From the IMG/VR virus record IMGVR_UViG_3300023174_000152, positions 8,066 to 72,065 of that record: a stretch of DNA of 64,000 bases, one strand, 5' to 3'. The position numbers and the translations under genes were made by a program. Origin of the DNA: a virus. The notes beneath the pieces are model-generated. The model was given only the letters and a program-made list of their open reading frames with translations. It was not told where the DNA came from and ran no database searches. Shown here piece by piece: positions 6,830 to 32,832 of this stretch (within the stretch, counting starts at the first letter, position 1; every line of letters begins with the position of its first letter).

Positions 6830-7115
6830 TGAAATCGAAAAATGGGAAGATGTTGTAAGTTCGGTTGACAAAGAACATATTCCCATTGACTGTGTCAAGA
6901 AAGTTACGTTAAAATTACGTGGTGGCCGTCAAAAGACCATCAACTTAGAAACGCTGAGACGCAACGGTCTTGATGTCGAAGACATCGAAGGAGTGGTAGC
7001 ACGAGCCATGGCAGAACGTGGTCGTGATATCATCAACGTAGATTTTGTCATCGACGTCAAAACTGTAGCACAGCACATACAACCTTACACAGATAAAATC
7101 TTAAGTAAACTATGA
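6813..7115 (+). CDS. Hypothetical protein (100 aa)
   Basis: ORF 6744..7115; the ATG at 6813 (MQLKVDE) gives a short overlap with the upstream gene. ATGA-coupled to thyX. Confidence 0.7.
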   Translation: MQLKVDEIEKWEDVVSSVDKEHIPIDCVKKVTLKLRGGRQKTINLETLRRNGLDVEDIEGVVARAMAERGRDIINVDFVIDVKTVAQHIQPYTDKILSKL

Positions 7116-7805: not shown

Positions 7806-8054
7806 GTGCAAAAAATAGTATTTCATTCATTCTCCATGGGCGACGTAGACGATCCTGAACTCTACGCCGCCTTTCCTTTGGGTGAGTTTATGGCAACAGA
7901 AAAAGGCCAATGGATAAAATCTCACTGCCTAGATCCTTGCTACATAATACGTCCAGATCCAGACTCCTATGGAGTTCGATGTATAGTTTATGGATCTGTG
8001 GAAGACAAATCAGCAACGGAGTATTATCTAAGATGGAATCAAGAAAAATCATAG
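7806..8054 (+). CDS. Small hypothetical protein (C-terminal ...EYYLRW motif)
   Basis: 82-aa ORF with an FSMGDVDDPELYAA motif, filling the gap between thyX and the epimerase. Confidence 0.7.
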   Translation: MQKIVFHSFSMGDVDDPELYAAFPLGEFMATEKGQWIKSHCLDPCYIIRPDPDSYGVRCIVYGSVEDKSATEYYLRWNQEKS

Positions 8055-9010
8055 TAACAGGCGGACTAGGCCTGATTGGACACAATGTAGTTCAGCGGTT
8101 AATGGCGCAAGGCCACCAAGTTGCTGTAACAGATATCAAAACAAACTACGGTCTAGTTCCGCAGGACGAGCTGGATTATCTAATGTCTGAACGCAGGAAA
8201 AAAATACCCGATGCCAGGGTTCATGGCATTGACATCGCAGATCAGGATGGTATAGATTGGATGTTTAGAGAATACAAACCCGATACTGTAATACACCTGG
8301 CCAGCTTTCCTAGACAAAAAGTAGTCAATGTAAATCCTATGATTGGCTCACGTGCTATGAGTGAAGGACTTCTTAATCTACTAGAAGCTTCCAAACGCAA
8401 TAATGTGTGTAAATTCATATATATTAGTAGCAGTATGGTCTATGGAGACTTCACCGATGATGTCACAGAAGATGCTGTTTGCCGTCCACAAGGACAATAC
8501 GGCATCATGAAACTTGCAGGAGAATGGCTTGTCCGAGATTATAGTAGGCGTGGTCTTTTTGATCATGTCATTATTCGTCCTTCCGCTGTATACGGAGAAT
8601 ACGATGTTGAAGATCGTGTTGTTTCAAAGTTTCTGTTGACTGCTATGCGCAACGGTGTGATCAAGGTCAACGGTGCTAACGAAACACTTGACTTCACTTA
8701 TGTAGAAGATGCCGCTGATGGTATAGTAGCGGCCGCACTGAGTCATAATACATCAAACAAAACCTACAACATCACCAAAAGTCACAGCCGTACATTGTCG
8801 GATGCGGCCAATCTTGCTGTAAAGATTGTAGGCCAGGGAACCATAGAAGTCAAAGACAAAGATGCAGACTTTCCCAGCCGCGGCGCACTGAACATTGATG
8901 CCGCACGTAGAGATTTTGGCTACGATCCCAAGGTAGATGTAGAAGAAGGCTTCCAAAGGTACTATGAGTGGCTTAACCATTCCGTTTACTGGTCTAAAAA
9001 AACAGTATAA
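8033..9010 (+). CDS. NAD-dependent NDP-sugar epimerase/dehydratase (extended SDR)
   Basis: IVTGGLGLIG, VIHLAS, ISSSMVYG, YxxxK (YGIMK), RPSAVYG and DFTYVED. Start set at ATG 8033 (MESRKIIVTGG). Confidence 0.9.
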   Translation: MESRKIIVTGGLGLIGHNVVQRLMAQGHQVAVTDIKTNYGLVPQDELDYLMSERRKKIPDARVHGIDIADQDGIDWMFREYKPDTVIHLASFPRQKVVNVNPMIGSRAMSEGLLNLLEASKRNNVCKFIYISSSMVYGDFTDDVTEDAVCRPQGQYGIMKLAGEWLVRDYSRRGLFDHVIIRPSAVYGEYDVEDRVVSKFLLTAMRNGVIKVNGANETLDFTYVEDAADGIVAAALSHNTSNKTYNITKSHSRTLSDAANLAVKIVGQGTIEVKDKDADFPSRGALNIDAARRDFGYDPKVDVEEGFQRYYEWLNHSVYWSKKTV

Positions 9011-10058
9011 CAACCTCCGGCAGGAGATCTTAGACACCACTGATGAAGTGTTGCGCAGTGGCCAACTCATGAACGGTAACTTCACTGCCGAGTTTGAAAA
9101 CTGGTTGGCTAAAAAAAACAAAACCAAGTATGCGATCTGTGTTCATTCAGGAACTTCTGCGCTGGAAGCTATTGCTGAATATTGCATAGATGATCCTGGT
9201 ATGCCCGCTCCTCCTCGGGTGTTGATGCCTAGCCTAACCTATGCGGCCACGGCCAATGCGTTTATACGAGCCGGGTGGGAAGTACACTTCATTGACACTG
9301 ACCATCACGGTATATTTGATGTTAAAAAAATACCCGATATCAGTTACCAAGCTGTAGTTTTAGTTGGACTGTATGGTGCCAGCATAGCTCACATGGGTGA
9401 TATCAGCACATGGCGCCATTGGTCACATAACAACAAAATCATCATAGAAGATGCCGCACAACATTGGTTGGCCGCTGACTGTGCAAGGATTGGAAACGCG
9501 GCTGCCATTTCATTTGATCCTATGAAAAACTTACCCGCTTATGGCAACGGTGGTGCAGTGGTCACAAACGATAGAGACATGTTTGATTTTGTACGGGCCT
9601 GGAGAGACAACGGTAAAAGCACACACAACGAAACAGGCACCAATAGTCGTATGAGTGAGTTAGATTGTGCTCACATGTTGGTCAAAACAAAATACATCGA
9701 TACCTGGCAAACTCGTAGATCCAAGATAGCCGGTTACTGGCGCGAACGCTTAAACAAAACAGAAATACGTTGTTTGATAGATCAAGATAACTGCCACGAT
9801 CATGCCTATCATAAGTTTGTGATCGACGTCAACAACAGAGATATCTTACAAAAGAATCTTGCCATACGCAAAATAGAAACAAAAGTACATTATACACAGC
9901 CGTTACACGAGCTGGGCACCTTCCGCCAGTATCAAGGACCAGACATCCTTAGCTGTGCGTCGGCGCTGGCTCGACGTGTGCTGACGTTGCCTTTATATCC
10001 TGAGCTAACAGATCTCGAAGTTGAGTATGTTATTGATCAGGTTCTCGATTGCGTTTAG
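8964..10058 (+). CDS. DegT/DnrJ/EryC1/StrS family PLP-dependent sugar aminotransferase
   Basis: SGTSAL, TYAATANA, IIEDAAQ, SFDPMKNL (PLP Lys), GNGGAVVTND, GTNSRMSE and LTLPLYP. Confidence 0.92.
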   Translation: MSGLTIPFTGLKKQYNNLRQEILDTTDEVLRSGQLMNGNFTAEFENWLAKKNKTKYAICVHSGTSALEAIAEYCIDDPGMPAPPRVLMPSLTYAATANAFIRAGWEVHFIDTDHHGIFDVKKIPDISYQAVVLVGLYGASIAHMGDISTWRHWSHNNKIIIEDAAQHWLAADCARIGNAAAISFDPMKNLPAYGNGGAVVTNDRDMFDFVRAWRDNGKSTHNETGTNSRMSELDCAHMLVKTKYIDTWQTRRSKIAGYWRERLNKTEIRCLIDQDNCHDHAYHKFVIDVNNRDILQKNLAIRKIETKVHYTQPLHELGTFRQYQGPDILSCASALARRVLTLPLYPELTDLEVEYVIDQVLDCV

Positions 10059-10551
10059 CCCATCTGGCTAACTGAGAAGCTCGCATTTTTTCTTTAGTCT
10101 CTTCGGATCTGGGCTTGCCAGGTTTTCCTTTCTTTGCTTTGCTTATTTTTTGACCTGTTTCGGCACTGACTATTTTTCCTAAGTTACAATCTCTTAATTT
10201 TTGTTTCTGTTCAGCAGACATAGTTTTTCCAAGGTTAGTTGGTTTGCCCAATCTTGCCTGAGAGATTTTCTTTTTAGTTTCTGTAGAATGTTTGTGACCC
10301 ATGATTCCGTCGCCACCATCTGTCATATTTCTTAAGATACCTGTACCAATGTCTTTTCGGCCGTATTGCTGAATGTATTTTGTTTCTAGCCGAAGAGCTA
10401 GTTCTTTAGTTAAATTAGATTCTAAGATTAGGATTTTATCGTTACTAGGAACTCTATGATACTTGTGCTTTTGCCAAGCTCTATTATTTTGTCCTTTACC
10501 TATATAGTAAGGAGTTCCGTCGTCTCTTAAGTAAGCATATACATAATACAT
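10030..10551 (-). mobile_element. Free-standing GIY-YIG homing endonuclease with NUMOD3 repeats
   Basis: YYVYAY...PYYIGKG...R...E catalytic domain, NxTDGGDG linker, repeated HS/MS-xE-xKxKIS (NUMOD3) units. More AT-rich than the flanks. Start set at ATG 10551. Confidence 0.88.
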
Positions 10552-10562
10552 GCTCTTATTTA

Positions 10563-12164
10563 TTATTGATCTGGTGTTAGATTTCTCTTTAAAAGGGCAT
10601 AACTGGCCAACCATGACCACTCGTAGCTTTTCTTGAGCTCATCAAAATCGCCATTGACACTTTCATAGTATTCAACAGCATCCTCTGCACCATAGATTGA
10701 CCATTGCCCGTTGGGCTGGCCTATGGCCACTGTGAGCCATTTCTTAAGCCTGTGCTGGCTTTCGATATCTGATTGACCGCGCAGTTTGATACATTCGCGG
10801 AAGGCTGTGCGCCAGGCTGACCATTTGGTATCAGCATACTCCGCTGTGCCTGACAATATCGGTACCACTTCGTGTTCATCATCTAGTGTAAAGTCTAGTC
10901 CACGACCAGGGTTGGCCAAAACCAATCGTTTGTTATATGCGATCATGGCTTGGTGGCCATATGTCAGAGTATTGATAGGATTAAACGCATGGAAGATATA
11001 ATGTTTGGCCGCTTGCATGCGATCAGGCTGCCAGGACCAATCAAACTTGGAATCAACTCTGAGTTTAGCAAACACAGCAAAGAACCAATCAGTGGTTGAT
11101 GCTTCAGCCGCGGCATGATATGCGGCCGCACGACCGTTGACTCTATCGCTACGCACAAGATTGTTGGGTTTCATATACAATGCTTCTTGTAGCGTGGTCC
11201 AGTGTCGTTCGGCATTGGGCTCACCGTTTGAGATAAACACCACATCTAAGGGTTGGTCTTCTCCTAGCGTCTTATAAGTCTTGTCTATGTTGGGATAATC
11301 GTAGAGTTGCTTCTTAAGATAGTTCTTGGCTTCTCTGGGTACTAGCACACTACTGGCTCCCGGAGTAAGAGGTACTATGGTCTTCATCTTCTCTCGCCAT
11401 AAGTTAATGGCAGGAGGATTTTCTATTGCACCGTGTCTGACAAACTGTACCACAGGATACTGGAAATCATGTGCCCATACTGCAGGTACTTGGCTGTCTT
11501 GTTCGTGCTTGATGACAGGCACCGGTAGTCTAGGAACAGATTTATCTTCTATAAAATGTATGGTATCAAACCATTCAAGCAAGGCCAACTCATTGGTCTT
11601 GGCAAGAAAAGATTCTACATTCACATAAAACGTATCACCAAACTTTTGTTCGTTGCTGGCAAATACATGCAACATGTCTTGTTGCCATTCTGAAGGATGC
11701 CAGGTGAAATCAAAACGACTGTAATCACATACACTACTCACTATCCAGACATTTTTGTAAGTACATTTGCTGAGTATTCTTCGTAAGGTTCCTAGATAAT
11801 CTGAGATATATCTTGTTTTTTCTTTGCAAGCGATGCCAAGACCGTTGCCGTGATCTATGCCAATGCGTGGCACAGTACCGATGCGTGGCACCACTGGATG
11901 ATTACGATTGATTTCGCTGACACCTGTTTTGGGTATCAAGTATGTTCCACCATTTTCTTGGTGCTGGCTGGGCCATACATGAGTCTGATGACTTTCCCAA
12001 GGCACAGGTTCCCACAACCAATCGAAGTGAGAATAGTCATTGAGCCCATCAACTACCCATAAGTATCTTGTGCGACTAAGTTCGCAAGCATGCTCGATGC
12101 TGTCGGCCCGGCGTTCGTGAGGCCAACGATAGGTAGGAGTGGTTAGGTAAAAGACGTCAAACAT
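10563..12164 (-). CDS. Glycosyltransferase-like (GT-A-like) protein with three tandem degenerate domains
   Basis: The C-terminal domain is paralogous to 27114..28043 (DVVFISNGEP / DCIYLSYDEP; AWRTAFRECIK / AWRAGFREGVK). An FD(W/F)xWxP motif occurs three times. Confidence 0.55.
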   Translation of the reverse strand: MFDVFYLTTPTYRWPHERRADSIEHACELSRTRYLWVVDGLNDYSHFDWLWEPVPWESHQTHVWPSQHQENGGTYLIPKTGVSEINRNHPVVPRIGTVPRIGIDHGNGLGIACKEKTRYISDYLGTLRRILSKCTYKNVWIVSSVCDYSRFDFTWHPSEWQQDMLHVFASNEQKFGDTFYVNVESFLAKTNELALLEWFDTIHFIEDKSVPRLPVPVIKHEQDSQVPAVWAHDFQYPVVQFVRHGAIENPPAINLWREKMKTIVPLTPGASSVLVPREAKNYLKKQLYDYPNIDKTYKTLGEDQPLDVVFISNGEPNAERHWTTLQEALYMKPNNLVRSDRVNGRAAAYHAAAEASTTDWFFAVFAKLRVDSKFDWSWQPDRMQAAKHYIFHAFNPINTLTYGHQAMIAYNKRLVLANPGRGLDFTLDDEHEVVPILSGTAEYADTKWSAWRTAFRECIKLRGQSDIESQHRLKKWLTVAIGQPNGQWSIYGAEDAVEYYESVNGDFDELKKSYEWSWLASYALLKRNLTPDQ

Positions 12165-13212
12165 GATTCGTATCGATGAAATATATTATAACGTATTTGT
12201 GTCTGCTTTGCAACACCGACCTCGTGTAGGCTTGCATTGGTTTGATCCTTTTGGTTCCACATCATTTGGCGATATATGCAACGTTCCTCGAGTTGACAAC
12301 ATAGCAGAAAAACGACTGGTATTCTGGGATCAAGAACCTCTGCACCAAGAACGAGTCAAAGATTTCTTTGATCAGTATATCAAACATTACTGGGGCCCTA
12401 CCACTATAGTCACTTCTGAATACAATAGCAAGGCAGTAGACTGGGCATGTGATACTTATGGGCTTGATTGTTCTTACTATTTCTTTCATGCCTGGGCCGC
12501 CCTGGATTGGTACAGAGGCTACAATCATACTTTCCTTTGCAAACCATTCCAAGACAGGCAAATAGAGCGTACATTTTTGTGTCCAAACAATATCATTGGC
12601 GGAAAAAGACATCATAGACTGGCATTATTAAACGAGTTTGTTGATCGGGAACTTATTGACAACAACTTTATCAGTTTTCCTGAACGTTGCCCATATGAAA
12701 ACAAAACAGTCACAGAGTTATGCCAAGAATACGATATCCCATTGGGACATGTCGAACTGCCATTGATCATTGATCATGGGGCCAATCATGCTGGTAATAG
12801 TCATCGTATAGATATGTGGTCGTTGGCTGAAAAAAGTTTGCTCAATGTAGTAACCGAAACCCTGTATGATGGGCACAGACAACACCTCACTGAAAAAACA
12901 TTCAAACCCATCGTGATGCAACAGCCATTTGTGTTGGTATCATGCAAGGGCAGTCTTGAATACCTCAGACGCTATGGATTCAAAACCTTTGGTGAATTCT
13001 GGAATGAAGACTACGATGACAAAGACGATGACTTCCGTATCATTCGCATTGGGAAACTACTAGCCGACATTGATGCATTGAGTATCAAAGAAAAACAACA
13101 ACTACAGCAACACATGACACCGATAGTTGAACATAACTTCAACTGGTTCTATTCCAAAGAGTTTGAAAACTTGTTATGGCACGAACTAACTGATATGATC
13201 AAGCAATGGTAA
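12163..13212 (+). CDS. GT10-like ('TEKxxKP') glycosyltransferase-fold protein, paralogue 1
   Basis: C-terminal VVTET...HLTEKTFKPI..QPF...GFKTF..FWNEDYD block shared with three other genes in the window; resembles the GT10 E-N-S...Y-x-T-E-K motif. Confidence 0.5.
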   Translation: MIRIDEIYYNVFVSALQHRPRVGLHWFDPFGSTSFGDICNVPRVDNIAEKRLVFWDQEPLHQERVKDFFDQYIKHYWGPTTIVTSEYNSKAVDWACDTYGLDCSYYFFHAWAALDWYRGYNHTFLCKPFQDRQIERTFLCPNNIIGGKRHHRLALLNEFVDRELIDNNFISFPERCPYENKTVTELCQEYDIPLGHVELPLIIDHGANHAGNSHRIDMWSLAEKSLLNVVTETLYDGHRQHLTEKTFKPIVMQQPFVLVSCKGSLEYLRRYGFKTFGEFWNEDYDDKDDDFRIIRIGKLLADIDALSIKEKQQLQQHMTPIVEHNFNWFYSKEFENLLWHELTDMIKQW

Positions 13213-14390
13213 CTTTTTGTGTTGACCGTACGGTAGATGGTCGCCCGTATCCAAATCTAGCTCAGTGGGAGGCTCGCCCTTACACTCCAGAATGGTGGCA
13301 GTTCAGTAGGCAATGGCCTTACAGCGAGCCTGTGCATTTTTTTGACTATCTTGATCGACACAATGTTGAATATAAAATAGTTGAGTGGACACAAGCAACC
13401 AAGCACACCTTGTACCCCATCAGCCTGAGTTATTTTGATTTCAGTATAAACTGGTTTGAGCTGTTGCCAGTTTTTATTAGAGAAAAGCTCAGAACTAAAA
13501 GTTTGACCTTGTGGTTTTTCTACAGTGAAGGTGACAACCCACAACGCATACAGGAACATTTACTGGCACAGTTTGCTAATCAAGACATTGATCTTGATCG
13601 CATTAAGTTTACCAGTGCAAATAGTTCTGCAGAATCTATCAAAAATTTTTCTCACTTTGTTGATGATGAGTGTTTGTATCAACTACGTAATAAAGAATCT
13701 CCTATACCGTTTGACCATCAAACGATCCGTAGAAAAAAATACACAGCATTAGTTAGGACTCACAAATGGTGGCGTGCCACTACCATGGCCAGACTGTGGC
13801 GGCAAGGTCTTCACCAGCAAGGGTATTTTTCTTACAACACACAAGAGCTTATCAATGACGACGAGCACCTTGACAATCCCATTGAAGTTGATCTATTTGA
13901 TGGTTTACGTGCTGATACTCATAGATTCCTGGCCAGCGGTCCATTCCATGCTGATGAGCTAGATTCAGCCACGCACAATCTTTATGCTACTACAGTACAT
14001 CAACATTTCAATGACAGTTATTTGAACGTGATCTTGGAAACTCATTTAGATGCTGATCAAAGCGGTGGAACTTTTCTAACTGAAAAAACTTTCAAACCTA
14101 TCAAGAACTGTCAACCGTTTGTGCTGGTGGCACCAGCAGGCAGTATCGCACAACTGCAACAGCTGGGCTACCGTACATTTGATCACGTGATCAACCATGC
14201 TTACGATCGAGAAATGGATAACACCAAAAGATGGAACATGGCCTGTACCGAAATAGAAAGATTAATAACCAACGTTGATCTGCATCAGCTCTATATTGAT
14301 TGCAAGCAAGACCTACTACACAATCAAGCATTATTTTTAAGTGACAAGAAGGATCGTTTAAATAGTTTGATCGCAAAGCTCACACAATGA
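13206..14390 (+). CDS. GT10-like ('TEKxxKP') glycosyltransferase-fold protein, paralogue 2
   Basis: ILET...FLTEKTFKPI..QPF...GYRTFDHVINHAYD. Confidence 0.5.
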   Translation: MVTFCVDRTVDGRPYPNLAQWEARPYTPEWWQFSRQWPYSEPVHFFDYLDRHNVEYKIVEWTQATKHTLYPISLSYFDFSINWFELLPVFIREKLRTKSLTLWFFYSEGDNPQRIQEHLLAQFANQDIDLDRIKFTSANSSAESIKNFSHFVDDECLYQLRNKESPIPFDHQTIRRKKYTALVRTHKWWRATTMARLWRQGLHQQGYFSYNTQELINDDEHLDNPIEVDLFDGLRADTHRFLASGPFHADELDSATHNLYATTVHQHFNDSYLNVILETHLDADQSGGTFLTEKTFKPIKNCQPFVLVAPAGSIAQLQQLGYRTFDHVINHAYDREMDNTKRWNMACTEIERLITNVDLHQLYIDCKQDLLHNQALFLSDKKDRLNSLIAKLTQ

Positions 14391-16899: not shown

Positions 16900-16997
16900 T
16901 TATAGATAAATGGATCTCTTTTGCGTAGCTCTTTGAGTTTTTTGCGATAACGTATTTCTAGTTTGATCCTGTTGATCAAGTTGCGTAACCATTTCAT
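16896..16997 (-). CDS. 33-aa basic peptide ending DPFIYK (not in ORF track)
   Basis: MKWLRNLINRIKLEIRYRKKLKELRKRDPFIYK. ATGA overlaps at both ends and a GGAGG SD upstream. Confidence 0.75.
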   Translation of the reverse strand: MKWLRNLINRIKLEIRYRKKLKELRKRDPFIYK

Positions 16998-24144: not shown

Positions 24145-25147
24145 TGACAAAATCTTTCATTTGTTGTGTAAATGTATCACGTTGATTACTATGTATCGCA
24201 AATGCATGGCGCAGATTATATAAACGTGTTTCTTTGGATTCTTCCCAAAACTTTGGCAGATCTTGTTTGACCAGCCAGGCCACTTCATGCACTAGACGTT
24301 GTATTCTTTCTTGCCCATCTTCAATGTCATCAAATGATTCGTCGATCCATTGACCGTATGTCTGGAAACCAAGACGTTTTATGTCTCGATAAAACCCGCG
24401 ATTGGCACATACCAAGAAAGGATGTGTAGCCAACACAGGTTTGTAAAACTTTTCCGTCCTAAAACTCGAAGGATGTTCAAACACAGTTTCTGTGACCAAA
24501 GTAAACCAAGTGTCAAGGTGCTGTGCTGGAACTATGACACCATCGATCCATCCAGGATTTTCTACATCGTATCCTGGAGGTAAAGTTTGTGTTGGTACTT
24601 TGTGTTCGGAGTATATTCGATTAAAATCAGGATGGCCCCAGGTGATGTCTGCATCGTGATTACACCAGAGTGCGCGATCAAGAAGTTGTTGCTGTTGTAA
24701 AAGATGTATAAGATACTGTCTATGTGGTCTTAGTTTCCGATTGGTGAACAAAAAACTATATTTTCTCGAATGTCTATTGTAATCCATGAGTGGAACACCA
24801 TAGTTTTGGCTACCTAAAGTAGCGGACAGAAAATGTTCTGAATTTAGATTGACTATGTCGTTGGGTGCATCTCCACCAGTGATCCAACGTATCTGTCCTG
24901 ATTGCATTTTAGACAAATAGTGTGGACTAGATGCTATGTGCCATTGCGTTATTACACTTTCATCTGTCTTTTCAATCACTGCACGACCGCCCATGGACAG
25001 CATGTCATATACTCTAGGCCACTGTTGCACAAATGTTTTTAAACTCATGACATAGATATCCGCAGTCAATGCTAGATTTCCTGTTTCGATCTCATTGTCA
25101 GGTCTGAGATAGTTTAGGGCTACACCTGGTTCAACTATGATTCGCAT
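24137..25147 (-). CDS. GT10-like ('TEKxxKP') glycosyltransferase-fold protein, paralogue 4
   Basis: LVTET...FRTEKFYKPV..HPF...GFQTYGQWIDESFD. Start set at ATG 25147. Confidence 0.5.
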   Translation of the reverse strand: MRIIVEPGVALNYLRPDNEIETGNLALTADIYVMSLKTFVQQWPRVYDMLSMGGRAVIEKTDESVITQWHIASSPHYLSKMQSGQIRWITGGDAPNDIVNLNSEHFLSATLGSQNYGVPLMDYNRHSRKYSFLFTNRKLRPHRQYLIHLLQQQQLLDRALWCNHDADITWGHPDFNRIYSEHKVPTQTLPPGYDVENPGWIDGVIVPAQHLDTWFTLVTETVFEHPSSFRTEKFYKPVLATHPFLVCANRGFYRDIKRLGFQTYGQWIDESFDDIEDGQERIQRLVHEVAWLVKQDLPKFWEESKETRLYNLRHAFAIHSNQRDTFTQQMKDFVNA

Positions 25148-26558
25148 AATAACCGCATTGAGTCCACCACTCAACCATTTCAGGAAAAACTTTTAGAAAT
25201 CTTGTACCTCTACGTTGATCGTGTTCATTAAAGAATCTATAAAAATCTGCTTGTTGTCTGCGTACATAGTCTGGATCTAGTTTGGCACCATCACGCATCC
25301 AAGCTATGTCTCTGTCAAGCCTACTGAGTTCATAGTCTTTGAATCCTTTGAATCTTTTTTCTTCGGTCTCGATATTTTTTAACATCCATGCCCAGGTTTT
25401 TTCTAGTTCGTCGGCATAGCTCTCAGGTAACAGTTGCATACTTTGCCATGTTGGTGTGCGTAACACAGGAGTATCAAACCATACACGTTGATAGGTCTTT
25501 GAATATATCTGTCTTAGCCCCAGTATAGCTACCATGAGATCACCAAAACTGGTCACTGATAGGTTATTCATCGTGATAATAAAAGTGATAGAACTGCGAC
25601 TGGGTACCTCTGTTAGGAACTGGTTTACTCTATCCCATAGCAATCTAAAATCAAGTCCGTTGCGAATGTATTCGGCCTTGTCCATCCAGGCATCAAGACT
25701 CACATATTGCATGAAGTGTTCGACTTTTTCACCCTCACACAGCATCTTGACATAACCCAAATATCGTTGCCAAAGTTTTTCTTCCACTGAGAAGTTGCTT
25801 GTAACATTGAGATGTAATCGAGGATTGTGATTAGTCAGCACATAATCAAACACACGGTAGGTGTTTTTATCCATCATTGGTTCACCACCAGTCATACGGA
25901 AGTGTTCTAGTTCTGGATAGAGCCGAGGCCACCAACTCCAAAAAGCGTCAAGGTATGGATTATCATCTCGGGCAGGTATAGGCCTACGCTCACCAACAAA
26001 ATACTCAGGGGCATTGTGAGGTACACTAGTAGGGAAAGCGCCGAAAGTCTCGGCTTCTTGCATCCATGAACTACTAAACTGTGGACTACAGTAACTACAT
26101 TTAAGATTGCAAGCATTACTAAAATTAACTTCAACGTAACTGGGTAAAACATCTTCATCTCCTGTAGAGTTTACAATGCTATCAAAATCCTTGGCGGCCC
26201 ATGGCTCGCCTGATCTATAATGTCTATCGCTGAGCTTGCCATTGTCTTCCATGGTCCAACAATAACTGCATTCACTGGGTCTTGTTCCTGTCAGCATGAG
26301 TCGGCGCTGTTCTTTCTTGTGTTCAGTGTTATGAATGCCCGACGGGGATCTCTGGATATCTTCGATGCGTATTTTATGCAGTGGGGGGTGATAGCATGAG
26401 TTGGTGTGACCTGTGGTCAGGTGCAAACTTACTTGTTTCCACTTGGCCAAACACATGCTGGGACTCACCGAATCCAGTTTCTCTTTCATTATCTCAGCGT
26501 CACTGAGAAACTTTGATTTGAAATCTGTAGTCACTTCGTCGCCTTTGTTATTTGCCAA
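25131..26558 (-). CDS. Radical SAM enzyme with N-terminal Cys/His auxiliary domain (type A)
   Basis: CLAKW...SCYHP...CSYCW; CNLKCSYC, GGEP and VSLDA. Likely TTG start at 26558 with a GGAG SD. Confidence 0.9.
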   Translation of the reverse strand: MANNKGDEVTTDFKSKFLSDAEIMKEKLDSVSPSMCLAKWKQVSLHLTTGHTNSCYHPPLHKIRIEDIQRSPSGIHNTEHKKEQRRLMLTGTRPSECSYCWTMEDNGKLSDRHYRSGEPWAAKDFDSIVNSTGDEDVLPSYVEVNFSNACNLKCSYCSPQFSSSWMQEAETFGAFPTSVPHNAPEYFVGERRPIPARDDNPYLDAFWSWWPRLYPELEHFRMTGGEPMMDKNTYRVFDYVLTNHNPRLHLNVTSNFSVEEKLWQRYLGYVKMLCEGEKVEHFMQYVSLDAWMDKAEYIRNGLDFRLLWDRVNQFLTEVPSRSSITFIITMNNLSVTSFGDLMVAILGLRQIYSKTYQRVWFDTPVLRTPTWQSMQLLPESYADELEKTWAWMLKNIETEEKRFKGFKDYELSRLDRDIAWMRDGAKLDPDYVRRQQADFYRFFNEHDQRRGTRFLKVFPEMVEWWTQCGYYANHS

Positions 26559-27120
26559 CTTGATCTCCCAAATAATCAAATAGTTTTATCATTCCTTCTT
26601 TGTTAAGATGGCCATCAGGTAACCTGTCTAAAGGTCTTATATAGGGATAATGTATAGTTGATTTAACATTTCTTTGTTCCCAAGAAAAAGCAATCACCTC
26701 TTTGTTTTGTTCTAGCAAAAATGTTATTAAACAATCAACTAGCATGTCGCTGAGTTGATCACAATAAGGATGCCCAAATACTGTATAAAAATATTTGTAA
26801 ACTTCTAAATGTGCCTTGTCGAGTTCTTCTGGAGTTAAATCAAATCCTTTTCCATGAGATCCTGCAAAGAAGTCAAGATCCTGATCATTGTATTTGATAC
26901 CAAATCGAGAACTGAATGTAAACCCTAGAACAAAAACGTCATGCTCTGAAAAGTTTTGATACGCATCAAATACTATTGCTAGATTGCTTTTTCCTGGGCG
27001 AGATTTATCTTTGACATTATACCCACCGATGGTTTGATATAAACTACCTAAAGATTGATCTCGGGGCAAACCTTGACCGTATGTCATACTACATCCGTCA
27101 AGATAAAGTTTTTTTACCAT
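26548..27120 (-). CDS. SGNH/GDSL-like hydrolase or acyltransferase
   Basis: GCSMTYG (GDS-like block I), SRPGKSN (block II) and C-terminal DxH (DGHLN). Confidence 0.6.
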   Translation of the reverse strand: MVKKLYLDGCSMTYGQGLPRDQSLGSLYQTIGGYNVKDKSRPGKSNLAIVFDAYQNFSEHDVFVLGFTFSSRFGIKYNDQDLDFFAGSHGKGFDLTPEELDKAHLEVYKYFYTVFGHPYCDQLSDMLVDCLITFLLEQNKEVIAFSWEQRNVKSTIHYPYIRPLDRLPDGHLNKEGMIKLFDYLGDQVGK

Positions 27121-28043
27121 CCTTCTTGACTCCGTATAACATCAATCTCTCTGGTCATTACGCCGCGGTTATGCCAGTTTGATCTGTAATGATCTTTGAA
27201 GAATGCACTTTGAAACGGAGGCATAAACGCCATTGGTAATCCTAGCTGTGTGAGCAAAGGTTCATGATACTGATCAATGAGTTCAGCTGGTGCCCTGGGT
27301 GCTGCCACGGCTTCCCAGATATTTTTTAAACAGTCAAAGTTCTGCACTTCTCTGTGGTCCCATTCGCTGAGCATGGTCATGAATGTGCCTTGCCGTGCAC
27401 CGGCTATGGCCCAGAATCCATTTTCTACATCGCATCCCACGTTGTGCCAGATACTGAGATGATCGAAGTTGCGTTTGTGTACACGATCTTTAAATTCTGC
27501 CACTGTGGGTTTCTTGCCACGATCTAGACACATCTTTACACCTTCACGGAACCCTGCTCGCCAGGCCTGGAACGGCGAACCATTGGGATAGGTTGTTGAG
27601 TAACAATCATACATGGGCCAATACAGTGGATCAAAGCAAAACTCTACTTCGGTTTCTGTACGACCGTCGGTATTTTCGTGTGTTTTCATACGCCACACAA
27701 ACTCGCGTGTCCAAGAACTCAATCCGCCATTACCATACATCAGGCCATTGACATGATTTCGAGCTCGCCAACGATACACCGCCTGCTCCCATTCTTCGTT
27801 GGGATATTCTAATGTAAGGTTGAAAAACTTTTCATCAGGTAAGTTGTCACCGTCGATGAGTATAAAGCGTTCTGTGTCACTGGCATCAGCCGCGGCTTTG
27901 TGTGCGGCGTCTGATCCTTTGACTCCATCTACCCGTTTGGCCCAAGGCACCATGTTTTTGATTCGCACCCAGAACTCTTCTTTCTGTGGCTCATCGTAGC
28001 TCAAATAAATGCAATCTAAATCTGCTATGTCAATCTGATTCAT
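27114..28043 (-). CDS. GT-A-like glycosyltransferase
   Basis: N-terminal beta-strand DCIYLSYDE, helix AAHKAAA, then FILIDGDN (DxD) and YGNGG. Confidence 0.6.
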   Translation of the reverse strand: MNQIDIADLDCIYLSYDEPQKEEFWVRIKNMVPWAKRVDGVKGSDAAHKAAADASDTERFILIDGDNLPDEKFFNLTLEYPNEEWEQAVYRWRARNHVNGLMYGNGGLSSWTREFVWRMKTHENTDGRTETEVEFCFDPLYWPMYDCYSTTYPNGSPFQAWRAGFREGVKMCLDRGKKPTVAEFKDRVHKRNFDHLSIWHNVGCDVENGFWAIAGARQGTFMTMLSEWDHREVQNFDCLKNIWEAVAAPRAPAELIDQYHEPLLTQLGLPMAFMPPFQSAFFKDHYRSNWHNRGVMTREIDVIRSQEGW

Positions 28044-28374
28044 ATGTTGTTTTTACTTCCCAATGTTGTTTGTTTTCTGCGTTGTTGTCAACAACGATAG
28101 TGATATCTTTAGGATGGCAAGGTGTTCCTTGGTCCGCAGGAGCCAGCTTCCAACTGGCAGGGTGATTTAACTTTACTATTTTGCCATCTTTGATTCGGAT
28201 ATCAAATCGTTGTTGGTCGAATGTCAATCGATCAATCACTATAAACGTGCCAGGTAAATCTTCCATGCTATAGTGCAACACGTTGCCTGACTCATCGTGA
28301 TACAGTCTAAACTCTTGCTTGACTTCTGGTTGTTCCCAGTTGTGTGCGTTAGCGGCCTGCCAAAAGGCGTCCAT
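28030..28374 (-). CDS. Hypothetical protein (114 aa)
   Basis: ORF overlapping both neighbours within the operon; GAGG SD. Confidence 0.7.
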   Translation of the reverse strand: MDAFWQAANAHNWEQPEVKQEFRLYHDESGNVLHYSMEDLPGTFIVIDRLTFDQQRFDIRIKDGKIVKLNHPASWKLAPADQGTPCHPKDITIVVDNNAENKQHWEVKTTYESD

Positions 28375-29179
28375 AGTGTTCCTCTAAATCTTGGGCAAAT
28401 GATTTGTGATGATAGTGTACAATGCCCTGTTGCTCCACTGTGTTGATGCGAAGACGTCCTTCTATCAACTCCCAAACCATTTCTGCTGTCCACGGTCTGG
28501 CATCGGTTTTTAAAAAGTTTACAGCTGGTTTCATGTGTGTCATAGCGGGCCAGGTATAGGGTAATGTAACTCTTTCGACCCCCATGTACTTGGCTGCCAT
28601 GGCATAGATCATGTCTGTGTTGGCAGATATCGAATCACAATATTTCAATGTTTGTCTTGCTGTAGACCACTGTTCAAAAAAACTTCTCACAAGATAAAAA
28701 AACTCTGCGGCAGTTTGACTCAGTCTCCAATATGTCACAGCATTATACACATCAGGCAAATCGTTGTCATCAAACAGTCTGCGATACACTCTACATTCGC
28801 TGGTCTCATTGAGATAGTTTTTTATCCCACGGCTGATTACAACATCTCTATGTTCGAACCAAGACCACCAATGATCTATGTTTTCAACTATCACAGTATC
28901 GGCTTCCAGTTTGATAGTTTCTCGGAAAGGTGAAGCATGAAATGCTTGCCAATCGTTGCTGAGTTTCCAGGTGCCGTTGGGATCTTGATCTCCGTAAGGA
29001 AAAGATCTAACAATATCAAACACCGGATCATGTTCGTCGGCGTCCGTGACCAAACATATCTTGCAGTCGGGCATCCACCAACGTAGACTTTTGGCCAAAG
29101 CTCTAGCGCAGGCCACGTAATCATCCTGTCCGTTGTTTGACGCTAAGATCAGATAGCCACGTTCAAATTCTACTGCCAC
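28349..29179 (-). CDS. GT-A fold nucleotide-diphospho-sugar transferase-like protein
   Basis: RGYLILA, ICLVTD, ASPFRETIKLEAD (ExD variant of DxD) and HMKP; paralogue of 29163..29984. Confidence 0.6.
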   Translation of the reverse strand: MAVEFERGYLILASNNGQDDYVACARALAKSLRWWMPDCKICLVTDADEHDPVFDIVRSFPYGDQDPNGTWKLSNDWQAFHASPFRETIKLEADTVIVENIDHWWSWFEHRDVVISRGIKNYLNETSECRVYRRLFDDNDLPDVYNAVTYWRLSQTAAEFFYLVRSFFEQWSTARQTLKYCDSISANTDMIYAMAAKYMGVERVTLPYTWPAMTHMKPAVNFLKTDARPWTAEMVWELIEGRLRINTVEQQGIVHYHHKSFAQDLEEHYGRLLAGR

Positions 29180-29984
29180 AGATTTTCCCCAAGTCAGGTT
29201 TGTTCATTACATGAAGATCGCAATCACGCAAGATCATTCTAAAGTGCTTGGCATGATTGTCGACCATGCGCACATAGTTGAGTTGGAACACATCTTCTTC
29301 TAGTTGATTTAAATACACGTCATAAAAACTAGTAAACAAAGGCCAAGGTATGTTTGGCACAGCGTTGGGCAAATGTCCATGAACTGTGTTAAGTGCTATG
29401 CTGATTGCATAGTCATTGCGATAAGGCTCTTGACTGAACTTATAGAGCCGACTGTAGTGATACCAGTTATCTTCGATCATGTTCATCATATCAAACACAG
29501 ATTCGGACAATCTTGTGCGGCGGAAATATAGCACAGTGGCCCACCACATAGGAAACTCAGTTTCTCCAAATCTTGTATCTCTAGCAAAGTTTCTGCGATC
29601 AGTGACATCTAACACATCTCTGTGGCAAAGCAAATCCTGCCCGCAATCAAATAAAACTTTTAATCGATCACAAGAAACAATGTAATCTGTGTCTAGCACT
29701 ATGGTTTCATTGTATGGTGATACATCAAATGCACGACAGCGTCCTCGATTAAACCATGTGGCCGACGAGTCAGCATTCATGTGGTCAAACTTGCGTGTGC
29801 CACCTGATTTACTCTCACGTATGATCACTTGATCAAACATGGATGTATCGTTGGGTGCTTGATCAGTGACCAAGGTAACTGGCAGCCCAAGATGCCTGGT
29901 GATACGAGGTGCAGACCACTGAGCTTGACTCACGTAATCTACCTTGTCATTGTTAAAGGCAAATAAAACAGCGCCACGTGTCAT
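29163..29984 (-). CDS. GT-A fold nucleotide-diphospho-sugar transferase-like protein (GT8/GT71-like)
   Basis: RGAVLFA, VTLVTD, SPYNETIVLDTDY (DxD), YRNDYA and HVMNK. Confidence 0.65.
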   Translation of the reverse strand: MTRGAVLFAFNNDKVDYVSQAQWSAPRITRHLGLPVTLVTDQAPNDTSMFDQVIIRESKSGGTRKFDHMNADSSATWFNRGRCRAFDVSPYNETIVLDTDYIVSCDRLKVLFDCGQDLLCHRDVLDVTDRRNFARDTRFGETEFPMWWATVLYFRRTRLSESVFDMMNMIEDNWYHYSRLYKFSQEPYRNDYAISIALNTVHGHLPNAVPNIPWPLFTSFYDVYLNQLEEDVFQLNYVRMVDNHAKHFRMILRDCDLHVMNKPDLGKICGSRI

Positions 29985-30292
29985 CTATTTTTGCTCAACG
30001 TTTCTAACTCTATCATCCAAGCAGTGAGTTGTTCTTGCCAGCGATCATGCGCTAGATGTTGTAATTCTAATACATTGATTTTTACTGGTGTGTCATACAT
30101 GTCTAACAAGACAGCATCTTCTGTGGGGCAGGATTGCAATAAAGCCAATAGTTCTGGCCCGGCACACCACATGCCGCCGCCGTGGGCAAAGGTCATTTTG
30201 CTTTGGTATTTTTCTTTGAGCAGTTTTTTCTGCGTGGCGTGATCAAATCGGCTTTTGATCTCTTGTGTTAGTTTTTCTGTGTCCATGGTCAT
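29981..30292 (-). CDS. Hypothetical protein (103 aa), first gene of the minus-strand modification operon
   Basis: Lies directly behind a sigma70 promoter; ATGA-coupled to the downstream GT. Confidence 0.75.
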   Translation of the reverse strand: MTMDTEKLTQEIKSRFDHATQKKLLKEKYQSKMTFAHGGGMWCAGPELLALLQSCPTEDAVLLDMYDTPVKINVLELQHLAHDRWQEQLTAWMIELETLSKNR

Positions 30293-30297
30293 ACTCC

Positions 30298-30326
30298 ATT
30301 ATAACAGAGTATGTACCAAAAGTAAA
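30298..30326 (-). promoter_or_regulatory. Sigma70-type promoter for the modification operon
   Basis: On the minus strand: TTTACT (30326-21)-17 bp-TATAAT (30303-30298), with an extended -10 TG. Confidence 0.75.
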
Positions 30327-30345
30327 GGGCCCGGAGGCCCTTTTT
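30324..30345. terminator. Bidirectional intrinsic terminator separating the structural and modification modules
   Basis: AAAGGGCC-CGGA-GGCCCTTTTT with T-rich tails on both strands. Confidence 0.8.
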
Positions 30346-31335: not shown

Positions 31336-31345
31336 TGCTTAATCC

Positions 31346-32779: not shown

Positions 32780-32801
32780 CTGTTCTACTCCGCTTTAGAG
32801 A

Positions 32802-32832
32802 TATTTATGATATCTTAATATATCCATATTTA
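32802..32832 (-). promoter_or_regulatory. Tandem TAAATA late-promoter-like boxes
   Basis: CATAAATA occurs twice (32832-27 and 32807-02) upstream of the tail fibre gene; similar to the T4 late consensus TATAAATA. Confidence 0.55.

Follow-up and report, generated by a model that had tools for sequence, protein, structure and literature searches.

The Ralstonia phage RsoM2USA carries, in its ORFs 355-348, a sub-block in the order fibre-like ORF, small ORF, two GT8 genes, small ORF, U309, radical SAM gene and U309-like gene. This sub-block adjoins ORFs 356, 359, and 361, and that phage's paper assigns these three ORFs to virion protein bands. The sub-block recurs, at 30-37% identity, within a larger gene block of the window analyzed here, a 64,000-nt stretch of viral DNA. 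The features of this block and its border are as follows.

8033..9010 (+): SDR, NDP-sugar epimerase/dehydratase (extended SDR); variable shell
8964..10058 (+): DegT, PLP sugar aminotransferase; variable shell
10030..10620 (-): HEG, NUMOD3 homing-endonuclease-like ORF (Pfam NUMOD3 38 bits, two stretches)
10563..12164 (-): U533, N-terminal repeats and a C-terminal U309-like (GT-A-like) domain
12163..13212 (+): FTa, putative glycosyltransferase with a TEKTFKPI..PF motif, by paralogy
13206..14390 (+): FTb, second of the FT paralogues (100 aa of it 40% identical to FTa)
14387..15415 (+): AMD, amidinotransferase; variable shell
15412..16899 (-): CBT, NodU/CmcH/TobZ-family O-carbamoyltransferase; conserved core
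16994..18094 (-): U366, conserved protein, function unassigned; in 55/55 loci
18045..19343 (-): RS1, N-terminal-twitch radical SAM; NF033640 282 bits
19333..20238 (-): FTc, third FT paralogue; variable presence
20235..21443 (-): RS2, N-terminal-twitch radical SAM; NF033640 336 bits
21440..22837 (-): RS3, N-terminal-twitch radical SAM; NF033640 411 bits
22792..24150 (-): RS4, N-terminal-twitch radical SAM; NF033640 298 bits
24137..25174 (-): FTd, fourth FT paralogue; variable presence
25131..26579 (-): RS5, N-terminal-twitch radical SAM; NF033640 321 bits
26548..27120 (-): U190, divergent SGNH/GDSL-like protein, GCS replacing GDS; accessory here
27114..28043 (-): U309, GT-A-like protein of high conservation with a DxD-type DGDN motif, by fold alignment of a model
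28030..28374 (-): U114, small protein, function unassigned; in 37/67 loci
28349..29179 (-): GTx1, GT8-like (glycogenin-like) glycosyltransferase, by profile match
29163..29984 (-): GTx2, GTx1 paralogue (paralogy E 3e-9)
29981..30292 (-): U103, opening gene of the operon, function unassigned; in 60/67 loci
30326-30298 (-): sigma-70-like promoter with an extended -10 (TTTACT-17-TATAAT, TG ahead)
30343-30324 (-): terminator-like hairpin (8-bp stem, 5 GC pairs, T-run)
30364..33432 (-): F323, F477, and F200, adjoining fibre/baseplate-type genes; candidate acceptors

GTx1 and GTx2 showed 30% and 31% identity with RsoM2USA_352 and RsoM2USA_353, respectively, and RS5 and U309 showed 35% and 37.5% identity with RsoM2USA_349 and RsoM2USA_350, respectively. 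CBT and RS4 were 45% and 52% identical to RsoM2USA_199 and RsoM2USA_202, respectively. Unlike in this block, however, the carbamoyltransferase and the RS4 orthologue of RsoM2USA are located approximately 90 kb from the GT8/U309/radical SAM block, and the core is therefore divisible.

The initial annotation had counted about 21 tightly coupled genes, and the ORF listing bore this out, with 22 tightly packed ORFs of at least 100 aa at positions 8033-30292. Position 8033 corresponds to Met42 of ORF 7910-9010, directly ahead of the Rossmann motif, and position 30292 marks the start codon of the 103-aa minus-strand ORF. Adjacent ORFs of the block mostly overlap by 4-50 nt, and the widest gap in the minus-strand run from 30292 to 15412 is 94 nt (16900-16993). 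Searches of Pfam, NCBIfam, and PDB profiles confirmed the SDR, DegT, amidinotransferase, carbamoyltransferase, and five radical SAM genes named earlier. The block also holds ORFs that the annotation did not mention, namely HEG and three conserved proteins without an assigned function (366, 114, and 103 aa). HEG, which was absent from all 80 related loci (0/80), is a selfish insert outside the pathway.

Of at least 599 related viral contigs, 80 were compared for the block, and collinearity was counted over 55-67 loci. The viral lineage carrying it consists of abundant uncultured myoviruses of ca. 300-375 kb, which are distant kin of RsoM2USA. The right-hand ca. 15 kb, from U103 to CBT (15412-30292), was collinear in nearly all of the 80 contigs, whereas the left-hand SDR, DegT, amidinotransferase, and GT10-like genes were variable. 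What had been described as a single 22-kb unit is better regarded as this conserved part together with a variable shell. In the order of minus-strand transcription, the core comprises U103, the GT8 pair GTx1/GTx2, (U114), U309, RS5, RS4, RS3, RS2, RS1, U366, and CBT. The shell contains 0-5 putative transferases of the FT family, the amidinotransferase, the amino-sugar pair SDR and DegT, extra radical SAMs, and others. Paralogy within the block reached E-values as low as 4e-68, and, judged from these values and from collinearity in 54-67 of 55-67 related loci, the gene block exceeds chance.

RS1 to RS5 are paralogues, all of which belong to NCBIfam NF033640 (282-411 bits against a curated cut-off of 170). 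All five retain CxxxCxxC, GGEP, and four N-terminal cysteines, and their twitch is N-terminal, Pfam SPASM being found at residues 7-117 ahead of the radical SAM core. RS1 (ca. 72% identity), RS2, and RS3 each occur in 55/55 loci, and RS5 in 67/67. Of 8,000 candidates scored, 5,734 matched RS3 as homologues at E<=1e-10, and relatives of RS4 are encoded on at least 599 viral stretches. The closest solved structures, namely viperin (9e-6), BlsE, SkfB, and MoaA, are only remotely similar, and a literature search found no account of NF033640 chemistry. The twitch of RS1-RS5 had been likened to that of BtrN-type enzymes; this analogy is a loose one, since RS1-RS5 carry the twitch at the N terminus and hence are not of the BtrN type, belong to NF033640, and have only remote structural neighbors.

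A fusion survey of 61 longer radical SAM homologues, 14 of which were compared with the window proteins, bears on the substrate of these enzymes. Radical SAM domains were fused with GT2 in P0320, P0322, and P0323, and with a GT-A-like domain of the U309/U533 type in P0329, P0330, and P0331 (E 1e-21 to 1e-25). P0327 combines a radical SAM domain with TylF, which is sugar-type, and other methyltransferase Pfams, and P0271, P0278, and P0290 are RS3-RS2 tandem fusions. A protein substrate for the N-twitch radical SAMs would also fit, and the TPR-radical SAM fusions that occur among the longer homologues are compatible with it. The fusions with GT2, the U309-type domain, and the TylF-type methyltransferase, on the other hand, give added support to a decorated-glycan pathway. 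RS1-RS5 probably act on sugars, not on a peptide.

The four GT-A-like proteins of the initial annotation resolved into two GT8-like proteins, GTx1 and GTx2, and two proteins with a GT-A-like domain, U309 and U533. The GTx1 profile A3 matched glycogenin-1 over its N-terminal half (E 8e-5), and E92, D94, and H215 are invariant in GTx1, which occurs in 67/67 loci. GTx2, found in 66/67 loci, has an invariant DxD (D98, D100) and no PDB sequence match of its own. U309 occurs in 67/67 loci with a mean column identity of 70%, D64, G65, D66, and N67 being invariant. Residues 3-155 of its model (pLDDT 79) aligned with GT-A/NDP-sugar-transferase folds at Z 6-8, among them those of viral transferases (PBCV-1 A64R, mimivirus R655, and STIV A197); Foldseek gave no match at E<=1e-3 (best, RmlT at 5.8e-3), and the predicted fold match is only middling. 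Residues 306-515 of U533, for which no Pfam or PHROG match was found, showed 26% identity with residues 9-244 of U309 (E 4e-7). The paralogy of the four genes formerly described as GT10-like is real, as FTa-FTd share the TEKTFKPI..PF motif, but their GT10 likeness is at most putative: Pfam GT10 matched 0/15 family members at E<=1. None of 10 long representatives matched a Pfam glycosyltransferase family, no glycosyltransferase family was matched in the PDB profile search, and the nearest named cluster of FTa in the ESM Atlas was GT10 at only 0.80. At E<=1e-3, the FT family numbers 13,797 representative clusters.

Among the sugar and tailoring enzymes, SDR scored 147 bits against Pfam Epimerase and 120 bits against GDP_Man_Dehyd; its top NCBIfam match, dTDP-glucose 4,6-dehydratase (123 bits), was under the family cut-off. 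DegT matched DegT_DnrJ_EryC1 (212 bits), its PseC- and WecE-type NCBIfam matches likewise falling under their cut-offs. These genes were present in just 2/80 and 1/80 related loci, respectively. The AMD sequence alone had no Pfam or NCBIfam match; its profile A6 (11 sequences) matched AGAT (1.8e-26), HsvA, SxtG, and StrB1 (7e-18), with C327, H188, and D190 invariant, and the gene was located downstream in 10/55 loci. CBT, found in 54/55 loci, scored 174 bits against Carbam_trans_C and 124 bits against Carbam_trans_N, and in the PDB matched the NovN type (4.9e-51), GdmN, and TobZ (3e-35). The SGNH-like gene reported earlier is indeed a divergent GDSL-family member: at a best E of 1.8e-6, blastp tied U190 to a family with 98 ORFs, the profile of which matched the GDSL protein 4rsh (2.2e-5). 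This family was found in 45/80 related loci, U190 itself by tblastn in 1/80, and most relatives carry two SGNH/GDSL enzymes within the core. U190 was missing from the contig of one run.

Because this enzyme inventory was confirmed, the general proposal of a decorated-glycan pathway is supported, as it is by the natural radical SAM fusions, and the block quite likely encodes a glycan or glycoconjugate pathway. No membrane-spanning segment was found in the 25 proteins examined, which places the pathway chemistry in the cytoplasm. The fuller reading, of a soluble, cytoplasmic operon by which a glycoconjugate is built and tailored, we hold with slightly less than even confidence. In such a pathway, the GT-A-type transferases would add sugars singly to an acceptor, and each radical SAM, paired with a transferase, would abstract hydrogen at one particular sugar position, so that the sugar would be epimerised, oxidised, deoxygenated, or branched. 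O-acyl, O-carbamoyl, and amidino groups may then be added or trimmed by the SGNH enzymes and the carbamoyltransferase, joined by the amidinotransferase in loci that encode one.

DNA hypermodification had already been doubted as the role of the block, and this doubt was strengthened: the thymidylate synthases neighboring the block in relatives are of the ordinary Asn177 type, and the alternative is unlikely. A phage protein is the likeliest acceptor, the adjoining Ser/Thr-rich fibre-type protein F323 (34% Ser+Thr) being the first candidate. F477 has PHROG tail-fibre matches, and F323 and F477 are collinear in 63/67 and 57/67 loci, respectively. The fibre genes are separated from the operon by the terminator and promoter (30298..30343). 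A hairpin was found at the equivalent boundary in 27/60 related loci against 14/600 control windows, and hairpin and promoter together in 19/60 against 3/600. Since the terminator is followed by the operon's own sigma-70-like promoter, the operon does not merely share a transcript with the fibre genes, and their adjacency may reflect mere conserved gene order of the lineage. This boundary speaks against the earlier argument from adjacency to virion glycosylation. The GT8/U309/radical SAM genes next to fibre-like and virion genes in the distant cultured RsoM2USA speak for it. A virion protein is, tentatively, the leading candidate for the acceptor.

Neither U114 nor U103 had a Pfam match. U366 had no Pfam, PHROG, or PDB sequence match, and its model (pLDDT 82) gave middling fold matches to cyclophilin-like barrels (Z 7-8.8). 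In 7 related loci, a gene of the MTA/SAH-nucleosidase type (PNP_UDP_1, 48 bits) was located among the radical SAM genes, a position that fits high radical SAM turnover.

The region from 8033 to 30292 contained 22 ORFs in four strand blocks, namely SDR (NDP-sugar epimerase/dehydratase) and DegT (sugar aminotransferase) on the plus strand, HEG and U533 on the minus strand, FTa, FTb, and AMD (amidinotransferase) on the plus strand, and a 15-kb run on the minus strand. In this last run, which extends from U103 (a conserved 103-residue protein; start at 30292) to CBT (O-carbamoyltransferase; end at 15412), neighboring genes overlap or lie no more than 94 nucleotides apart.

A search of viral contigs with RS4, one of the five radical SAM paralogues RS1 to RS5, yielded at least 599 stretches encoding a relative, and the best 80 of these (66-85% identity) were compared by tblastn with 25 proteins of the window. 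The gene order F200-F477-F323-U103-GTx2-GTx1-(U114)-U309-RS5-(FT)-RS4-RS3-RS2-(FT)-RS1-U366-CBT was near-universal in these 80 loci; F200, F477, and F323 are fiber/baseplate-type genes, GTx1 and GTx2 are a GT8-like pair, U309 is a GT-A-like protein, and U114 and U366 are conserved proteins of 114 and 366 residues. Presence was counted only in loci whose relevant flank was 9.5 kb or longer. U309, RS5, and GTx1 were found in all 67 such loci, GTx2 in 66, F323 in 63, U103 in 60, and U114 in 37. Similarly, RS3, RS2, RS1, and U366 were present in 55 of 55 loci and CBT in 54, and AMD was present in only 10. Rare genes in the best 80 loci, as judged by tblastn, were SDR (2/80), DegT (1/80), and the divergent SGNH/GDSL-like gene U190 (1/80). 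HEG, a NUMOD3 homing-endonuclease-like insert wedged between DegT and U533 (10030-10620, minus strand), occurred in 0/80. The 42 loci with both flanks contained five (25 loci), six (15 loci), or seven (2 loci) radical SAM-like genes and from 0 to 5 FT-like genes. Since the 80 loci are the closest of at least 599, these counts describe the near clade only. The core was kept at 60-70% identity across many contigs. The biosynthetic cluster proposed in the initial annotation was confirmed and sharpened by these results, with 22 ORFs, matched families, and a gene order kept in relatives. Its conservation as a unit, however, holds for a collinear core of about 15 kb and not for SDR, DegT, AMD, and the FT genes, which form a fast-changing shell.

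RS1 to RS5 are full-length members of NF033640 (282, 336, 411, 298, and 321 bits, respectively, against a curated cut-off of 170). Matches above this cut-off occurred at five places in the record and in none of 14 control genomes. The five proteins are mutual paralogues, in which the CxxxCxxC motif (C168, C172, and C175), an N-terminal set of four cysteines for an auxiliary cluster (C54, C73, C114, and C117), and a GGEP motif are invariant. The SAM-cluster motif was found in 64/76, 79/79, 63/78, 80/80, and 78/79 of the relatives' best tblastn segments, where the misses may be segments that stop short of the motif. In all five RS proteins, the Pfam SPASM/twitch match is located at residues 7-117, ahead of the Radical_SAM core. 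The initial annotation had likened these enzymes to BtrN, which is a C-terminal-twitch radical SAM enzyme. The two types share a radical SAM domain and one auxiliary cluster domain, but the likeness did not hold beyond this, because all five RS proteins carry the auxiliary-cluster domain at the N terminus; five paralogues and a coupling to transferases also set the present enzymes apart from BtrN-type tailoring. BtrN was absent from the PDB profile matches of the RS family at E ≤ 0.1, and the nearest solved structures were viperin, a radical SAM protein annotated without a function, BlsE, SkfB, and MoaA (9e-6 to 7e-4). A literature search retrieved no characterized NF033640 member, nothing on an N-terminal-twitch family, and nothing joining jumbo phage, radical SAM, and carbamoyltransferase; the radical SAM component is thus without a characterized precedent that we could find. 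Homologues were abundant: of 8,000 candidates scored against RS3, 5,734 were homologues at E ≤ 1e-10, and the best 120, all metagenomic, were 78-93% identical. Single-protein scans of genome contigs with RS3 and with DegT gave no relative.

Sixty-one longer homologues of RS3 were found, and their domain compositions were examined. Forty-nine of them were 815-856 residues long, and Pfam recognized no domains other than SPASM and radical SAM in these; each of the five that were compared with the window proteins joined two N-terminal-twitch radical SAM units in a single polypeptide. The halves of three (P0271, P0278, and P0290) matched RS3 and then RS2, which is the genomic order, suggesting that RS3 and RS2 act as a pair. 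Other fusions carried GT2 Pfam domains N-terminal to the radical SAM unit (P0320, P0322, and P0323), a U309/U533-type domain in the same position (P0329-P0331; E values of 1e-21 to 1e-25 against U533), methyltransferase domains including TylF (P0327), or TPR repeats (P0321 and P0324-P0326). We read these fusions as the best available evidence that the N-terminal-twitch radical SAM enzymes may act within glycan assembly. A complex prediction of RS5 with U309 gave a score of 0.00, which speaks neither for nor against binding.

The same proteins bear on the alternative that the five enzymes cross-link, epimerize, or otherwise alter a phage protein or small precursor such as U103, U114, or a fiber protein, with the transferases being secondary. 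Twitch/SPASM domains are typical of peptide-modifying radical SAM enzymes, the RS proteins also weakly match peptide maturases in NCBIfam, and the TPR fusions, the two small conserved ORFs in the operon, and the adjoining fiber genes would fit such a role. However, the fusions with GT2, U309-type, and TylF-type domains point to sugars, neither Pfam nor NCBIfam reported an RRE/PqqD-like domain, and a Cys-rich or repeat core is absent from both U103 and U114. We consider protein maturation quite improbable.

The putative transferases of the core were assigned with differing degrees of certainty. The GTx1 profile matched glycogenin (E = 8e-5) over its N-terminal half only (profile positions 4-112), and an ExD motif (E92 and D94) and H215 were invariant. 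GTx2 is a paralogue of GTx1 with a DxD motif (D98 and D100); it had no PDB match by sequence profile, and neither protein had a Pfam match. U309 is paralogous to the C-terminal half of U533. A sequence-profile search of the PDB with U309 returned nothing usable. In a model of U309 (pLDDT 79, pTM 0.81), residues 3-155 aligned with GT-A transferases and nucleotidyltransferases (Z scores of 6-8, rmsd of 3.2-5 Å), including PBCV-1 A64R (Z 6.7), mimivirus R655 (Z 7.0), and STIV A197, and an invariant DGDN motif directly follows the strand at 59-64. A Foldseek search with this model gave nothing at E ≤ 1e-3, the best match being RmlT (5.8e-3). On the basis of the model, U309 is a probable GT-A-type enzyme. 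The N-terminal 300 residues of U533 (10563-12164, minus strand) contain three copies of the motif (Y/D)S(H/R/K)FD(W/F)xW(E/H/Q)P...H(V/I)(W/F) ahead of the U309-like domain, and these repeats matched no family in Pfam or PHROG.

The four FT proteins (FTa to FTd) share a TEKTFKPI..PF motif, and the TEK motif may resemble that of GT10. The GT10-like label that they had been given was not upheld, since none of 15 FT members matched Pfam PF00852 at E ≤ 1. No relevant Pfam domain was found in any of 10 sampled long representatives, the PDB profile gave nothing or noise, an ESM Atlas lead from FTa to GT10 had a score of only 0.80, and a tblastn search of phages with FTa gave no match. At E ≤ 1e-3, the family has 13,797 representative clusters; in the Atlas listing, it is mostly viral. 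Together with U366, this family, for which there is no Pfam model, makes up a sizeable annotation blind spot. Many of its members carry two FT units in proteins of 740-1,000 residues.

Among the sugar-tailoring enzymes, SDR and DegT scored 147 and 212 bits in Pfam, and both Carbam_trans_N and Carbam_trans_C (124 and 174 bits) were above the Pfam cut-offs in CBT, which places CBT in the NodU/CmcH/TobZ family. CBT scored below the NodU equivalog in NCBIfam (137 bits against a cut-off of 1000), and its closest solved relatives were a NovN-type enzyme (4.9e-51), GdmN (1e-48), and TobZ (3e-35). AMD alone had no match in Pfam or NCBIfam. A profile of 11 AMD sequences matched AGAT (1.8e-26), StrB1 (7e-18), HsvA, and SxtG over two to three stretches, which identifies AMD as an amidinotransferase. 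C327, H188, and D190 were invariant in the 11 sequences, and C327 probably corresponds to the catalytic Cys of AGAT. The same families are shared with aminoglycoside and aminocoumarin tailoring (TobZ, NovN, and StrB1), in which sugars or cyclitols are O-carbamoylated and amidinated.

In the 80 loci, 296 ORFs of at least 150 residues had no match to any window protein. The largest family among them (98 ORFs in 45 loci) mostly occurs as two tandem copies between U366 and CBT. Its members begin with GDSF(T/I)YG and have conserved S11, N47, and H194, and the profile matched the GDSL protein 4rsh (2.2e-5) and, weakly, thioesterase I and CE2 esterases. The GDSL match and the conserved Ser, Asn, and His together indicate that this family is SGNH. 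The window is without the two tandem copies; it has only U190, in which GCS replaces GDS and which is weakly similar to the family, so that an SGNH activity of U190 itself is uncertain. In run X2, a contig has 24 other letters in place of the stretch between 26526 and 27113. It represents a variant lacking the U190 gene, as would be expected if U190 is accessory. Other accessory genes of the relatives included additional radical SAM genes, an APS-kinase-like P-loop gene (29.7 bits) after CBT in 8 loci (e.g., L046:20342-21199), and an MTA/SAH-nucleosidase-type gene that matches PNP_UDP_1 (48 bits) and lies amid the radical SAM genes in 7 loci (e.g., L027:14546-15118). MTA/SAH nucleosidase removes 5'-deoxyadenosine. 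U366 was present in all 55 loci examined for it and gave a model with a pLDDT of 82. Searches with U366 by tblastn against phages, in the ESM Atlas, and by PDB profile returned nothing, and no longer or fused forms were found. The Foldseek rows for U366, mostly protein kinases, were rejected as noise (all E > 0.5, TM 0.1-0.16). A cyclophilin-like barrel was also obtained, but its Z scores of 7-8.8 are within the common range of a wide fold search, and no function was deduced from it.

The resemblance of these enzymes to antibiotic tailoring enzymes raises the alternative that the product is a diffusible or intracellular small molecule, such as a pseudo-oligosaccharide or an aminoglycoside-like or nucleoside-like compound, made during infection. 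The closest solved relatives of CBT (NovN-type, GdmN, and TobZ) and AMD (StrB1, SxtG, and HsvA) are natural-product tailoring enzymes, and BlsE, viperin, and MoaA, among the nearest solved relatives of the RS proteins, act on nucleosides or nucleotides. All the proteins are soluble, and the APS-kinase-like protein and the further tailoring genes in relatives are also compatible with such a product. PDB matches, however, reflect which enzymes were crystallized, and conservation is lowest for the most antibiotic-like enzymes (AMD, SDR, and DegT). Each locus has from four to eight transferase-like genes, and the window has no exporter or self-resistance gene, which likewise argues against a small molecule; we consider such a product quite unlikely.

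The boundary between the fiber genes and the core was examined for transcription signals. The gap between F323 and U103 contains the strongest terminator-like hairpin of the region (an 8-bp stem with 5 GC pairs, followed by a T-run). Downstream of it lies the sequence TTTACT-17-TATAAT preceded by TG, which is a σ70-like promoter with an extended −10 by consensus match only. A strict hairpin with a T-run was found before U103 in 27 of 60 relatives compared with 14 of 600 random windows, and a hairpin together with a −10-like hexamer in 19 of 60 compared with 3 of 600. The terminator and promoter suggest that the operon is its own transcription unit with a host-type promoter. In addition, none of 25 proteins contained a membrane segment (a 19-residue stretch with a Kyte-Doolittle mean of at least 1.6); the set is therefore without a flippase, polymerase, or polyprenyl-phosphate transferase. 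The core is a widely conserved, separately transcribed, and fully soluble operon of about 15 kb, in which putative GT-A-type transferases are interleaved with the five N-terminal-twitch radical SAM enzymes. Its predicted chemistry is completed by putative esterase/acyl and carbamoyl enzymes, and the surrounding shell consists of further transferase-like and amino-/guanidino-sugar genes.

In several relatives, including L013, L034, L048, L059, and L074, the region ahead of the U103 orthologue contains a TTGACA box and then a hairpin with TATAAT or TATACT in its loop region, which embeds the promoter-like site in a stem-loop. The T4 late-promoter word TATAAATA had no match. The word CATAAATA occurred at three minus-strand sites near 32802-32834 and 51593-51600, just upstream of structural genes; it may be a late-promoter word of the lineage, but this number is not above chance. 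In the sequencing runs, shares of only 0.05-0.15 of a 7.5-kb stretch were found. The only true metatranscriptome, X5, gave four short contig pieces, including 30028-30262 in U103, but these are no demonstration of transcription, and contigs give no RNA start, end, or level; runs X1-X3 are probably DNA.

Such a promoter would fit a remodeling of the host envelope, in which early expression provides unusual NDP-sugars or altered LPS, capsule, or glycoprotein precursors, for example for a superinfection block or a receptor change. The σ70-like extended −10 promoter after a terminator is enriched in relatives, and GT8, SDR, and DegT are typical LPS/O-antigen enzyme types. Carbamoyltransferases occurred in 136 phage records and are described as sporadic 'host-like' genes of T4-like cyanophages in the available part of one source (PMC3037559). 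On the other hand, the promoter is a consensus match only, from which early timing is deduced, and the lack of a membrane segment in all 25 proteins, and hence of a flippase, polymerase, or polyprenyl-phosphate transferase, does not suit envelope synthesis. Furthermore, the 60-70% identity of the core is more readily explained by a phage-internal target than by diverse host glycans. Envelope remodeling is rather unlikely.

The viral metagenome record from which the window derives (bases 8066-72065) is 72,065 bp long and, according to CheckV, 21% complete; by arithmetic, this completeness implies a genome of approximately 340 kb. Several relatives are records of 354-374 kb rated 100% complete. 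The genes flanking the cluster were as follows.

7112-7786: ThyX, adjoining the cluster
31346-32779: tail-fiber PHROG matches
60512-63288: SbcCD-type nuclease subunits
Flanking genes of the window: CobS-type ATPase and a VWA/DUF2201 protein

Matches to gp6-like and gp25-like baseplate proteins in the flank were weak and below the threshold. These flanking genes support a large myovirus with T4-like modules. The whole block had no match to GenBank phages by megablast, and a PHROG search with the ten proteins lacking an assignment returned only two weak families of 'unknown function'. In the baseplate module, the gp6-like gene is immediately followed by a single ORF of 4,854 residues (33602-48166, minus strand) with 16% Ser+Thr, an ordinary composition. 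A SegE-type GIY-YIG homing-endonuclease ORF (63328-63762, plus strand; 116 bits) follows the SbcC-like gene.

The adjoining thymidylate synthase gene, together with ThyA in 3 of 5 large relatives, is relevant to DNA hypermodification, in which carbamoylated or glycosylated hydroxymethyl-pyrimidines, for instance, would be formed. Carbamoylation of DNA 5hmC by a NodU-type phage enzyme is described in the portions available of two reports (PMC8670742; bioRxiv 10.1101/2024.12.05.627091), and that system likewise has a NodU/TobZ-family carbamoyltransferase near a gene of the thymidylate synthase family. In the sections available of Yang et al. 2021 (PMC8670742), however, carbamoyltransferases co-occur with Asp177 (dCMP-type) thymidylate-synthase homologues, the His147/Asn177 type is associated with unmodified DNA and dUMP specificity, and carbamoyltransferases on unmodified contigs are flanked by glycosyltransferases. 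The ThyA-family genes of all three complete relatives that have one carry PPCH and PFN(I/V)AS, corresponding to His147 and Asn177. None of these genes is of the Asp177 type, the window itself has ThyX, and the neighbors of CBT are transferases. In the window ORFs examined, Pfam and PHROG gave no match to a hydroxymethylase, TET/JBP, or a DNA glycosyltransferase; this holds for a record about 21% complete and for genomes partly inspected. The doubt about DNA hypermodification voiced in the initial annotation is reinforced by the Asn177/His147 ThyA of the relatives and by these window ORFs, and such a modification is very unlikely.

Taken together, the results are best read as a glycoconjugate pathway, which we regard as probable. 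A virion protein is the leading hypothesis for the acceptor, but this putative assignment is tentative. It draws on the Ser/Thr-rich neighbor F323 and on the virion ORFs beside the corresponding block of a cultured phage, RsoM2USA. A more specific proposal is possible but doubtful: with five NF033640 enzymes in series and GT-A partners, an aquatic jumbo-phage lineage would build an unusual cytoplasmic oligosaccharide on its own baseplate or fiber proteins. The NF033640 enzymes would then be glycan-tailoring radical enzymes and fixed partners of the GT-A transferases, and the oligosaccharide would be epimerized, branched, or deoxygenated and then acylated and carbamoylated. Should the fiber or baseplate be the target, the product might affect how the phage recognizes its host or how the virion is protected. 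This lineage abounds in metagenomes (at least 599 contigs with an RS4 relative and thousands of close RS3 homologues), and this abundance suggests that its product, of whatever kind, is made on a large scale in nature.

Read as a glycoconjugate pathway, the region is a form of virus-encoded glycosylation with radical SAM chemistry as the new element. Known examples of such glycosylation come mainly from giant viruses and from a small number of mycobacteriophages. The chlorovirus (PBCV-1 A64R and others) and mimivirus fibril systems use their own soluble GT-A transferases together with a dehydratase and a DegT-type aminotransferase to decorate their own particles. The present region resembles them in its viral GT-A-type and amino-sugar enzymes and in the alignment of the U309 model with A64R and R655, but it belongs to a bacteriophage, and for its acceptor there are only candidates. 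To our knowledge, these systems contain no radical SAM enzymes, carbamoyltransferases, or amidinotransferases. In mycobacteriophages, virion O-glycosylation involves phage transferases encoded near structural genes and Ser/Thr-rich acceptor segments; as far as we know, only a small number of transferases (one to a few) take part, and radical SAM, SGNH, and carbamoyl chemistry are absent. We know of no viral glycosylation system with such radical chemistry. The proposed pathway, if correct, would represent in a phage a parallel to the fibril glycosylation of giant viruses, one that proceeds via radical chemistry. At its conserved heart are five paralogous radical SAM enzymes of a family whose chemistry is uncharacterized and which natural fusions tie to glycosyltransferases.

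Part of the gene set is present in a distantly related cultured phage, Ralstonia phage RsoM2USA (343.8 kb), which makes the question experimentally approachable. CBT corresponds to ORF199 (45% identity) and RS4 to ORF202 (52%), and two proteins encoded between them share the N-terminal motif of U190. A second run, ORF348-355, is located approximately 90 kb from ORF199-202.

ORF355: fiber-like
ORF354: small
ORF353: GTx2 (31%)
ORF352: GTx1 (30%)
ORF351: small
ORF350: U309 (37.5%)
ORF349: RS5-like (35%)
ORF348: U309-like
ORF358, near ORF348-355: SDR

The homologous genes are in the same local order as in the window, but they are divided between two loci, and the examined stretches contain two rather than five radical SAM genes. 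In the available part of the RsoM2USA paper, virion protein bands are assigned to ORFs 356, 359, and 361 among others, and that part makes no mention of radical SAM or carbamoyl. Vibrio phages K566 and K567 each carry four clustered N-terminal-twitch radical SAM genes; in these phages and in RsoM2USA, the genes are annotated only as hypothetical or 'radical SAM domain-containing'.
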